36,453 nt of DNA from a virus (taxonomy: Duplodnaviria; Heunggongvirae; Uroviricota; Caudoviricetes), in the IMG/VR virus record IMGVR_UViG_2740892234_000020, one strand, 5' to 3'. The number at the start of each line of letters is the position of its first letter. The first letter of the stretch is position 1. Made by a program: the position numbers. Below, one piece after another: positions 30,001 through 33,000 of this stretch.

Positions 30001-33000
30001 AGAGCCGATTTATGTTTAATGAAGAAAAAGTTGCGCAAATGGCAGCGTATTTGCTGAAAAAGCATGGCGGATCTATGCGTTTCATTAAGCTGAAGCAGCA
30101 ACGGTAATGGCGAATAGCATTTATGAGCAAAATAATCTTGATATGTTATTAGGCGATCTGATGTAACCGGGATGATGTTCACCCCTTATCGCCGGGGAAC
30201 AATACCGGCAATCAGAATTGCGGATGGAACTATTCAGGCCCACGATGATATCGATGAGGAGTTTTTTCAGCCAGTATTGGATGGCTTTCTTATATCCAAA
30301 TATACGCCATTTGACATCCTCCACGCCCTGAAGGACGGGGTTTTACAGCGCACCGGATAAGATTCGGTGTTTTGTTGAAAAATACTGTGATAACAAACAG
30401 AAAACCCGTCAGTAAGACGGGCTTAGCAAGCTGGGACGGTTACTTTAATAATTTCAGTGCCTTTACATCCACTTCAACACTGCTCAGGTCTTTATCAATT
30501 TCACCCTCAATTCTTACTTTGTCTTTCGGAGAAACATTCTGACCGGCCCATATGCTGTCATCGATATCCGTGACAATTGTCCCGCTATTGTCACGAAACT
30601 CATAACGTTCATCACCCACTTTTTTAACGATGCTCCCTTCAAGGATAACCCATGCATCATCCTTCAGTTCTTTTGCCTGCGCTACTGTTGAACGCTCTGC
30701 TTCAGGCCCTTGGAAACCGCCCTGCTGTGCAAAAGCGCCAAAAGACACACCAGAAATAAGTGCTGCAATCAATACCTTTTTCATTCATAGTCCTCTTTCA
30801 GAGATGAACATTCAAACAGCATTTTCAGTATGGTAAAGCGCGGGTGCGTTGAGGATGCCTGACACATCAGAGGTGGCGGGAGATTACTCCCCCGCTTGGT
30901 CTCTTACTTCTCAGATTCGTAGTCTACGAAGACAGCGACCTCCGTCTGACCGGTTCGGATTCGCACCTCGCAGAGGTCTTTCCTCGTTACCAGTGCCGTC
31001 ACTATGACGGTTAAACAGATGACGATCAGGGCGATTAACATCGCCTTTTGCTGCTTCATAGCCTGCTTCTCCTTGCCTTTCGGCACGTAAGAGGCTAACC
31101 TACATGTGTTCAGCATGGATTGAGCCTCAGATTAATGTTAAGCGTCTTGCCGGACGCGTAATGTTAACTGGNNNNNNNNNNGTTGTCATGTATGGGGGCT
31201 GTTTGTTATGACACCCTGTGTTTGGAATGAATATTTAATAACAGGTGTCTGGAAATATAGGGGCAAATCCACTGGATAGGCTATTGGGGCGTGAGAATCG
31301 AATGGAGAGAAGGGCTGTGGCTCTGGAAAGGCAATTAAATGGAGGTGTCGATTTTTTAAGGAGTGTTAATAACTATTTTCAGAGTGTCATGGCAGAACAC
31401 AGAGAAAATAAAACAAGTAATAAAATATTAATGGAAAAAATAAATTCTTGTGTATTTGGAACGGATTCTAATCACTTTTCTTGCCCGGAGTCATTTTTGA
31501 CATGCCCGATAACGCTGGACACACCTGAGAATGGAGTGTTCATGAGAAACTCACAAGGTGCTGAGATATGCTCTCTATATGATAAGGACGCGTTAGTGCA
31601 ACTTGTTGAAACTGGTGGAGCTCATCCTCTGAGTCGAGAACCTATAACAGAATCAATGATTATGAGAAAAGACGAATGTCACTTTGATTCAAAAAAAGAA
31701 GCCTTTGTTGCAAGTGATGCTTAATTTTTTCTGTTGGTGTGTTTTATATTAATAGTTTATTATAATAGTGCCATGTAAGGATATATTGCCTGAACAATTA
31801 TTCAGACAATATTTTTCTTGCTTTATATGGTGATTAACTTATTGAAAATATGCTTCTTATATTGTGTTTTTATTTTTAAATACTGTTTTGTTGAAGGGGG
31901 TATATGGGTAATGCGTAAAAACATTGTTTTGTTATATTAAAATGACACTTGTCTTTGCTTATAATCATTTCTGGAGCAAAGGGGTCACGGCTGAGGGGGT
32001 GGAGAGCGTTACGCAGGATAAGTTCAGTCAATGCTTCCTGATCATATAATGCACATATTTCTGAATTTCGAGCATTTCTGACAAAAACACCTGTCTCAGG
32101 AATATGTAGCGTTATCGGACAATTAAGATGTTCCTCAGTACAGGAAAAGTCTTGTAAACTAACGGGAAATGCATTCGAATTTATTCGATCTAGTAGTGTT
32201 TTTATGACGCTTTCCTGCACAAGCGGGGCAGCTTGCCTCTGCTCCAGATATAAGCTGTATGCCTGCAGAAAAGTGTTACCTCCGTTAAGTTGTCTTGTCA
32301 GGCTGTCTGCGAGATGATGAGCCTCTCTTGCCCCAAGATGGTCCCAAAGTCCACCAGGAATAGGCTCAACACTAAAACCATCCATAAACTGGATATAATG
32401 AAGCCTCATATTACGGCCTCCTATAGTAATAGTGTCATTCTGGTTGCTTCTTGCAATATGTCGTAAAGCCTCCAGCTCATTTTCCGGCAATACACTTCCA
32501 TTAGAAAAATTTAATATGACTGGCATATTATTATCCTTTTTAATCCATATTGTGAACTATATTGGTAACAAGAGTCAACATACCGCTCATGATATGTGAA
32601 TAAAACAATACTATTTTTAATAGAATATTATTGCATGCATGTTTTTTCTGGCTACAATAAACACAAGTATGCAATATTGTAAACACTTTTTATAAAAAGG
32701 AATTATAATGCCGATGAATACTACAGGTACGTCTTTCAGCTCTTTTGGTATAAGTTGCCATAGAGAAAACTCCTTCAGGAACTCTTTCCTAGGGAAGAAT
32801 GATGAGGTCATAAAATGTTCAATGGGAGAACGGACGATTCACTTTTCTGTTCGCAAATTTAGCGGCAATATACTGGATACAGTGAACAGGCAGAATACTA
32901 AAGATATTAATGGGTGGATAAAAGATGAACGGATAGTATATCCCTCAAGGGTGATCAACCAGGAGATTGATAATTACTGTTTTCAAAAAAATGCAAAAAT

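Follow-up and report, generated by a model that had tools for sequence, protein, structure and literature searches.

A BOF-family gene as probable cargo inside the hokW/sokW transcription unit of a 933W-type Shiga toxin phage

The IMG/VR virus record IMGVR_UViG_2740892234_000020 is a stretch of 36,453 nucleotides (nt), referred to here at its full length as the window. On its minus strand it carries a hok gene for a type I toxin (30904-31059; 51 amino acids, aa), followed by a gene for a protein of the BOF family, to which YgiW and YdeI belong (30440-30784; 114 aa). An initial annotation had noted the pair in a prophage setting, with the BOF gene 119 bp downstream of hok on the same strand, and had left it between a functional pair and coincidental cargo. 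The list of open reading frames (ORFs) places both genes exactly where they had been reported, with the gap at 30785-30903, and the prophage setting is right. On the evidence set out below, we lean towards the view that the BOF gene is a periplasmic stress-tolerance cargo gene (moron) embedded in the hokW/sokW transcription unit, between the fbi element and the terminator. Judging from the arrangement of these elements, hok and BOF probably share one transcript.

The hok-BOF locus

From 29890 to 31172 the window is 100% identical to phage 933W (AF125520), in which L0135, L0136 ("similar to YgiW and YdeI"), hokW, mokW and sokW are annotated; sokW was mapped onto the window by an offset of 27556. 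The BOF gene L0136 of 933W is ECs1244 in strain Sakai and Z1498 in EDL933, and the Sakai Sp5 locus comprises ECs1244-ECs1245. The locus and both gene families are already known and annotated, and the genes themselves add nothing new. The initial annotation had considered the arrangement unusual, which is wrong. Besides being annotated in the identical 933W locus, the pair is standard right-end cargo of 933W/Sp5-type Shiga toxin (Stx) phages, occurs as nin-region copies in other lambdoid prophages and is found in about 10% of complete E. coli genomes. In 933W the pair is flanked by the giant LPD38 gene on one side and, on the other, by the Ea22/TraR/Ant genes near attR. The description of the surroundings as low-GC cargo holds to a modest degree, with a GC fraction of about 0.43-0.45 over 29800-30800 against 0.53-0.59 in the neighbouring giant gene.

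The assignment of the two proteins to the Hok and BOF/YgiW-YdeI families is sound, with profile scores far above the curated cut-offs. hokW (30904-31059, minus strand) encodes a 51-aa Hok/Gef membrane toxin, in agreement with the 933W annotation, and scores 81.1 bits against Pfam HOK_GEF PF01848 (cut-off 22). The mokW frame (30904-31116, minus strand), seen in the ORF list and annotated in 933W, is an in-frame 5' extension of hokW and holds the sokW target region. The antisense RNA sokW, a misc_RNA in the 933W annotation, is encoded on the plus strand at 31108-31172; in full it would extend over 31108-31178, and its last 6 nt fall within a run of Ns. Rfam at gathering thresholds returned no match in the whole window, the sok family RF01794 reaching 47.3 bits (E=3.2e-9), under its gathering score of 59, in a match that spans the N-run. 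The toxicity of HokW, its location in the inner membrane and the antitoxin function of SokW have been demonstrated by Takada et al., who also showed that HokW is produced after RecA-dependent induction and speeds lysis, and that hokW mRNA is present before induction, in uninduced lysogens (PMC8621323).

The 114-aa product of the BOF gene (30440-30784, minus strand) reaches 113.7 bits with the Pfam profile BOF PF04076 (cut-off 25.8), 136.4 bits with NCBIfam NF033674 (cut-off 35) and 110.8 bits with TIGR00156 (cut-off 108.15). It falls below the cut-off of the YdeI equivalog NF007471 (63.7 versus 179 bits) and does not classify as a YdeI orthologue; the 114-aa protein belongs to a distinct phage-borne clade. 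Residues 1-19 (30728-30784, minus strand) are a predicted Sec signal peptide, MKKVLIAALISGVSFGAFA followed by QQGG. A phmmer comparison with the YgiW structure 1NNX (PDB), chain A, aligned residues 18-111 to 12-105 (E=3.3e-29), and the mature N-terminus matches up with the beginning of that chain, so the residues after the signal peptide are assigned by homology to a periplasmic OB-fold domain. YgiW, YdeI and SipA reside in the periplasm, have porins or antimicrobial peptides as binding partners and give protection from polymyxin B, H2O2 and Cd (PMC6370654).

The identical protein has the UniRef accession A0A4P8BAV1. A 2026 study of the secretome of enterohaemorrhagic E. coli (EHEC) gives this accession as Z1498, scored with an SPI signal peptide, and found the protein in culture supernatants (PMC12962677). 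The BOF protein is thus made. It was detected alongside phage structural proteins and Stx2B (PMC12962677), and spontaneously induced cells are a possible source. A literature search on L0136, ECs1244/ECs1245, and ygiW together with lysogen found no study of the gene's function or transcription.

RNA architecture and the missing terminator

The 119-nt spacer between the two genes (30785-30903, minus strand) would constitute both the 3' untranslated region (UTR) of the hok mRNA and the leader of the BOF gene. Its sequence and fold reveal a post-stop hairpin (~30865-30885), the fbi element CATCCTCAACGCACCCGC (30840-30857), a weak -10-like TACCAT (30830-30835) and the Shine-Dalgarno sequence AGAGGA of the BOF gene (30791-30796), all on the minus strand. 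A terminator scan found no hairpin with a U-tract in the spacer or before 30424. The first terminator downstream of the hok promoter is an intrinsic one, AAGCCCGTCTTACTGACGGGTTT with a T-rich tail (30402-30424, minus strand; -14.2 kcal/mol, z = -2.85), which follows directly after the BOF stop codon. It is conserved at the shared cassette end in 933W, in the nin-region loci and in L010/L128, where L-numbers denote loci retrieved in the survey described below.

Canonical hok loci are built differently. In hokD of E. coli K-12, fbi is followed at once by the intrinsic terminator AACCCGCTTCGGCGGGTTTTTG, and rem lies beyond that terminator. Among the 73 IMG/VR phage contigs that have an identical fbi and enough downstream sequence, 64 have a hokD-type terminator within 40 nt of fbi, with varied co-oriented genes beyond it. 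The homology of hokW-BOF to hokD stops at ~30832, exactly where the terminator stem would begin. We infer that the displacement of the terminator by a cargo gene is the sole departure of this locus from canonical hok loci; no description of a displaced hok terminator was found in the literature searched.

The intact hokW mRNA of 933W (393 nt, GCGGGUGC... to ...CACCCGCG) is predicted to fold with its 5' and 3' ends paired (-164 kcal/mol, z = -7.3), and the tac-fbi duplex alone amounts to -27 kcal/mol. The fold was computed on the identical 933W sequence, tac having been lost from the window. The end pairing matches the fold-back inhibition design of R1 hok, known from the work of the Gerdes laboratory.

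The architecture bears on the possibility that hok and BOF are coincidental neighbours, an explanation that we regard as doubtful though worth serious attention. The BOF gene would then be a moron like any other, transcribed from a promoter of its own within the 119-bp spacer, and would have arrived by chance next to hok, at a cargo slot prone to recombination. The weak -10-like element that closely follows fbi, which reads TACCAT in 933W and TATCAT in the chromosomal copy, could be that promoter, and the tac-fbi helix followed by GCUUU might end part of the transcripts. Further, the lower GC content of the cassette fits imported cargo, BOF genes are frequent cargo on other elements, and in nin regions the genes that follow hok vary, forming a cargo slot taken by Rem in Qin, by a 90-aa protein and by others. 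However, that slot usually keeps the hok terminator, with the cargo beyond it, whereas here the terminator is missing and in the related locus L011 it has moved to the far side of BOF, which places BOF inside the hok unit. Sigma-70 promoter scans gave no candidate between hok and BOF in 933W, L006 or L011, which is weak negative evidence only, and the hok promoter has been retained at loci from which hok itself was deleted, as detailed below.

Prevalence, linkage and mobility

Prevalence was counted in 5426 complete E. coli genomes, and hidden Markov models and ORF predictions were applied in a survey of all retrieved loci. The BOF gene is present in 548 of these genomes and a 301-nt hok-BOF junction probe was covered to at least 80% in 550, so that every BOF copy is joined to hok. 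At the level of ORFs, every 114-115-aa BOF gene for which upstream sequence is available has hok as its immediate upstream neighbour on the same strand, and one 128-aa BOF gene (L011) is likewise preceded by hok. Among about 80 other BOF loci, 65 of them from other species, none has hok within 3 kb; this set includes BOF genes at plasmid-like, insertion sequence-flanked or tail-fibre-adjacent cargo sites, and mobile elements with BOF but not hok are seen in L140, L015-17 and L137. In about 4700 E. coli genomes there are close relatives of hok, such as hokD, but no BOF gene. The dependence therefore runs one way only: BOF of this clade occurs with hok, while hok occurs widely without BOF.

This asymmetry matters for the proposal of a functional protein pair, in which the periplasmic BOF protein would modulate Hok, for example by binding its periplasmic C-terminal part, buffering leaky toxin or tuning HokW-assisted lysis after induction. 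The linkage of the 114-aa clade to hok is complete, and a second instance, L011, pairs another BOF lineage with another Hok subfamily. Hok-family toxins have a periplasmic C-terminus, and the BOF protein would share that compartment. The peptide binding known for SipA (PMC6370654) also speaks for such a pair, as does a genome-wide association study that describes an interaction between ygiW_2 and a mokC-like gene in the risk of haemolytic uraemic syndrome (PMC11950266). The simplest explanation of the latter "interaction", however, is the physical adjacency of the two genes on Stx2a-type phages, and the periplasmic part of HokW is, by our own count from its sequence, not cationic like the peptides bound by SipA. 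Further, Hok is widely found without BOF, in the ~4700 genomes mentioned, and BOF without Hok, on the other mobile elements, which makes an obligate partnership unlikely. Of the 73 phage hok loci that share this fbi, 64 are closed by a terminator and have unrelated genes after it, other unrelated cargo (a lipoprotein, a 295-aa protein, Rem) occupies the same slot, and BOF persists after the deletion of hok in L133-L136. Finally, pBAD hokW-sokW clones that lack the BOF gene act as a complete toxin-antitoxin system (PMC8621323). Taken together, we consider a functional protein pair improbable.

The cassette from the hok promoter to the BOF terminator measures ~0.9-1 kb and was found in three settings. 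Apart from the right end of 933W, it occurs in the nin region (P ... hok-BOF ... DUF968-RusA-Q) of prophages of O157, O121, O145 and O111 at ~97-98% identity, co-oriented with the phage early transcripts, and as a diverged copy at the chromosomal apbC/metG site, where the BOF protein is 81% identical. It behaves like a classic moron, being a discrete unit that takes several positions, has a terminator at its end and shows a GC fraction of 0.44 compared with ~0.55 nearby. The promoter of this moron would be the hok promoter.

Related loci and other cargo

In L011 a divergent Hok from a different subfamily and an unrelated leader are followed by a 128-aa BOF protein that is 59% identical to that of the window. 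This BOF gene lies between fbi and a retained terminator, AAACCCGCTTAGGCGGGTTTTTT, which differs from the hokD terminator by one change in the loop. The hokD-type terminator comes only after BOF, the gene having been inserted between fbi and the hok terminator. In a neighbour-joining tree of BOF proteins (~110 residues, no bootstrap support) the L011 protein stands apart from the 114-aa clade. Two independent captures of BOF behind hok are likely on these grounds, although not established.

A second informative group, L133-L136, consists of several independent metagenome contigs in which hok is deleted and the 128-aa BOF protein is the closest relative of that in L011. The leader that precedes this BOF gene is 90% identical to the L011 leader. 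In these contigs (960-1100 in L133) the hok -10 element (TAGAAT), the start region and tac are fused to fbi and form a local 5' hairpin, in which three base pairs, read by eye, are changed on both strands relative to hokW. Retention of the promoter and the 5' hairpin with loss of the toxin is as expected if BOF is read from the hok promoter.

In the few other fbi loci whose terminator is not intact, a cargo ORF likewise begins 40-80 nt downstream of fbi. In coordinates that run forward with fbi, the slot is taken by a 295-aa protein in L195 (~1820-2800) and by a 130-aa lipoprotein in L185 (~9386-9900), L188 and L219. These examples suggest that the fbi-terminator junction is a recurrent point of cargo insertion, and the 3' flank of hok as a whole looks like a variable cargo slot.

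A model for expression of the BOF gene

Of the two options left by the initial annotation, neither is favoured in its plain form. Pure coincidence at the level of the transcription unit is disfavoured because BOF is always joined to hok and the terminator is displaced beyond it, because the layout recurs with a second BOF lineage and a second Hok subfamily, and because the hok promoter is kept where hok has been deleted. An obligate partnership at the protein level is disfavoured as well.

In the model that we favour, transcripts would start at the constitutive hok promoter, pass fbi since the canonical hok terminator is absent, and end at 30402-30424. After induction of the prophage, co-directional phage early transcripts would also read through; at the right end of 933W, such read-through is suggested by analogy with the gene order of lambda. 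The hok part would stay translationally closed through tac-fbi pairing and SokW. The BOF cistron could nevertheless be translated from its good ribosome-binding site, which would still be available in the read-through RNA. The protein would then be exported by Sec to the periplasm, where it may act like YgiW, YdeI and SipA, conferring tolerance of envelope stress or antimicrobial peptides on the lysogen. The hok/sok locus would thereby supply a promoter, a stable RNA and possibly retention of the cassette, and a physical interaction between Hok and BOF would not be required.

Several points weigh against this model. No paper was found that maps the start or the 3' end of ECs1244/Z1498 transcripts or assigns the gene to an operon, and hok is not mentioned in the text of the EHEC dRNA-seq/Term-seq paper (PMC7547250). 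The -10-like element and the possible partial termination at the tac-fbi helix, both described above, could give the BOF gene a promoter of its own and might shorten part of the hok transcripts. Takada et al. resolved a "full-length hokW mRNA", for which no sizes were given, on a 6% polyacrylamide gel (PMC8621323), which suits a species of ~400 nt better than one of 850 nt. Further, a long 3' extension does not easily fit with the 3'-exonucleolytic activation described for the R1 hok mRNA; the 3' processing of hok mRNA is summarised in the same paper (PMC8621323). Lastly, the role in stress tolerance is proposed by family likeness, and the phage protein lacks a linker of ~13 residues, described below, that most of its relatives have.

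A broader interpretation, which we regard as a long shot, is that the hok/sok loci of lambdoid phages are platforms for the expression and retention of cargo placed between fbi and the terminator. Three types of cargo may fit it, namely BOF, the lipoprotein and the 295-aa protein. The BOF cistron may then be the 3' tail of the hok mRNA, made constitutively from a very stable RNA, and the tail may change the 3' processing of this mRNA or the timing of its activation. HokW could thereby shift from post-segregational killing towards a lysis helper coupled to induction.

Surroundings of the locus in the window

The right flank of the pair is not its true context. A run of 10 Ns at 31173-31182 marks a scaffold join, and the alignment with 933W and two other loci diverges exactly there. 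The N-run takes the place of the hokW promoter, the tac element, the 5' leader and the last 6 nt of sokW, all of which are intact in 933W. The sequence to its right (31183-36453) carries two NleG genes, TrcA, DinI and an integrase and then runs into chromosomal dusA. Where genomes are complete, this part forms the end of a dusA-integrated lambdoid prophage and directly follows tail-fibre genes, not hokW. The window is thus a scaffold: the right end of a 933W/TL-2011c-type Stx phage is followed, after the N-run, by the cargo end of another lambdoid prophage. Because the right flank maps to the dusA-integrated prophage, the effector-rich neighbourhood does not belong to the pair. NleG effectors as neighbours of hok-BOF were accordingly rejected as an artefact, joined to it only via the N-run.

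On the other side, a 2806-aa ORF (21469-29889, plus strand) corresponds to the RefSeq LPD38 domain-containing protein (L0134 in 933W, ECs1242 in Sakai); its end is 550 bp away from the stop codon of BOF, which is encoded on the other strand. Between this giant gene and the BOF terminator lie a 31-aa ORF and the 62-aa L0135 of 933W (30012-30360, plus strand), neither of which gave a family match. A likeness of these ORFs to Panacea/SocA antitoxins was unsupported by Pfam and was dropped. A terminator-like hairpin on the plus strand (30350-30370) faces the BOF terminator, so that two convergent units end there.

A second hok/sok-like locus is present at 17954-18243 (plus strand), just after lom (17136-17870) and its terminator. 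It encodes a Hok-like peptide of 46 aa (18103-18243; HOK_GEF 24.4 bits, cut-off 22) and gives a sub-threshold Rfam sok match (17954-18114; 36 bits, E=1.7e-6), with a tac-like GCGUGGGUGCC and an fbi-like GGCACCCG that were read by eye. A co-oriented ORF starts ~20 nt past the fbi-like element, and no terminator is visible there by eye, no scan having been made. The layout echoes hokW-BOF. Phage TL-2011c has this stretch with 100% identity, under the annotation "MokW-like host killing".

Implications

The arrangement is relevant to the genetics of hokW. Both the ΔhokW-sokW::kmR allele and the hokW-3FLAG allele (primers YO-351, YO-352, YO-560 and YO-561; PMC8621323) put foreign cassettes or an FRT scar between hokW and ECs1244 (30785-30906 in the window), and ΔhokW-sokW::kmR ends at the hok stop codon, with the cassette just upstream of ECs1244. 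If BOF is read from the hok promoter, this deletion may be polar on ECs1244, and its effects on lysis timing (a delay) and on phage yield could then stem in part from BOF. More generally, if the transcript is shared, the published alleles alter BOF expression, which was uncontrolled in that study (PMC8621323). Beyond this phage, cargo inside the 3' UTR of a type I toxin would mean that a toxin-antitoxin locus can also serve phage accessory genes as a module that provides a promoter and stabilises the RNA.

Comparison with known systems

The closest reference is the intact locus of 933W and Sp5, from which the window copy differs in having lost the hokW promoter, tac and the end of sokW to the N-run. 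Further, 933W continues on the far side of hokW with L0139-L0142 and then attR, whereas the window has the sequence of another prophage there.

The hokD (relF) gene of the K-12 Qin prophage encodes almost the same Hok peptide, and it has the same post-stop hairpin and fbi. The nin-region position of hokD also matches that of the hok-BOF copies in L003/L010. However, hokD has its terminator right after fbi, whereas hokW lacks it and the BOF gene starts 55 nt after fbi. In Qin itself (L142, 800-1430), Rem follows the terminator and is in turn followed by the same small ORF and the DUF968 gene as at that nin position.

E. coli YgiW (1NNX), Salmonella YdeI/OmdA and V. cholerae SipA share with the phage protein the BOF OB-fold family, a signal peptide and a periplasmic location. 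The phage BOF protein is, however, only ~50-60% identical to its chromosomal relatives, and its gene is phage-borne behind hok rather than beside qseBC. The 114-115-aa phage clade also lacks a Gly/Gln/Pro-rich linker of ~13 residues after the signal peptide, which is present in nearly all relatives of 126-134 aa.

Finally, the cassette fits the moron concept as exemplified by bor and lom of lambda. Like these lambdoid morons, it is a small, terminator-bounded unit of lower GC content that is found at varying positions and encodes an envelope protein likely to benefit the lysogen. Unlike bor and lom, it appears to use the promoter of a toxin-antitoxin locus instead of a dedicated one, and its cargo would share an RNA with the toxin gene.

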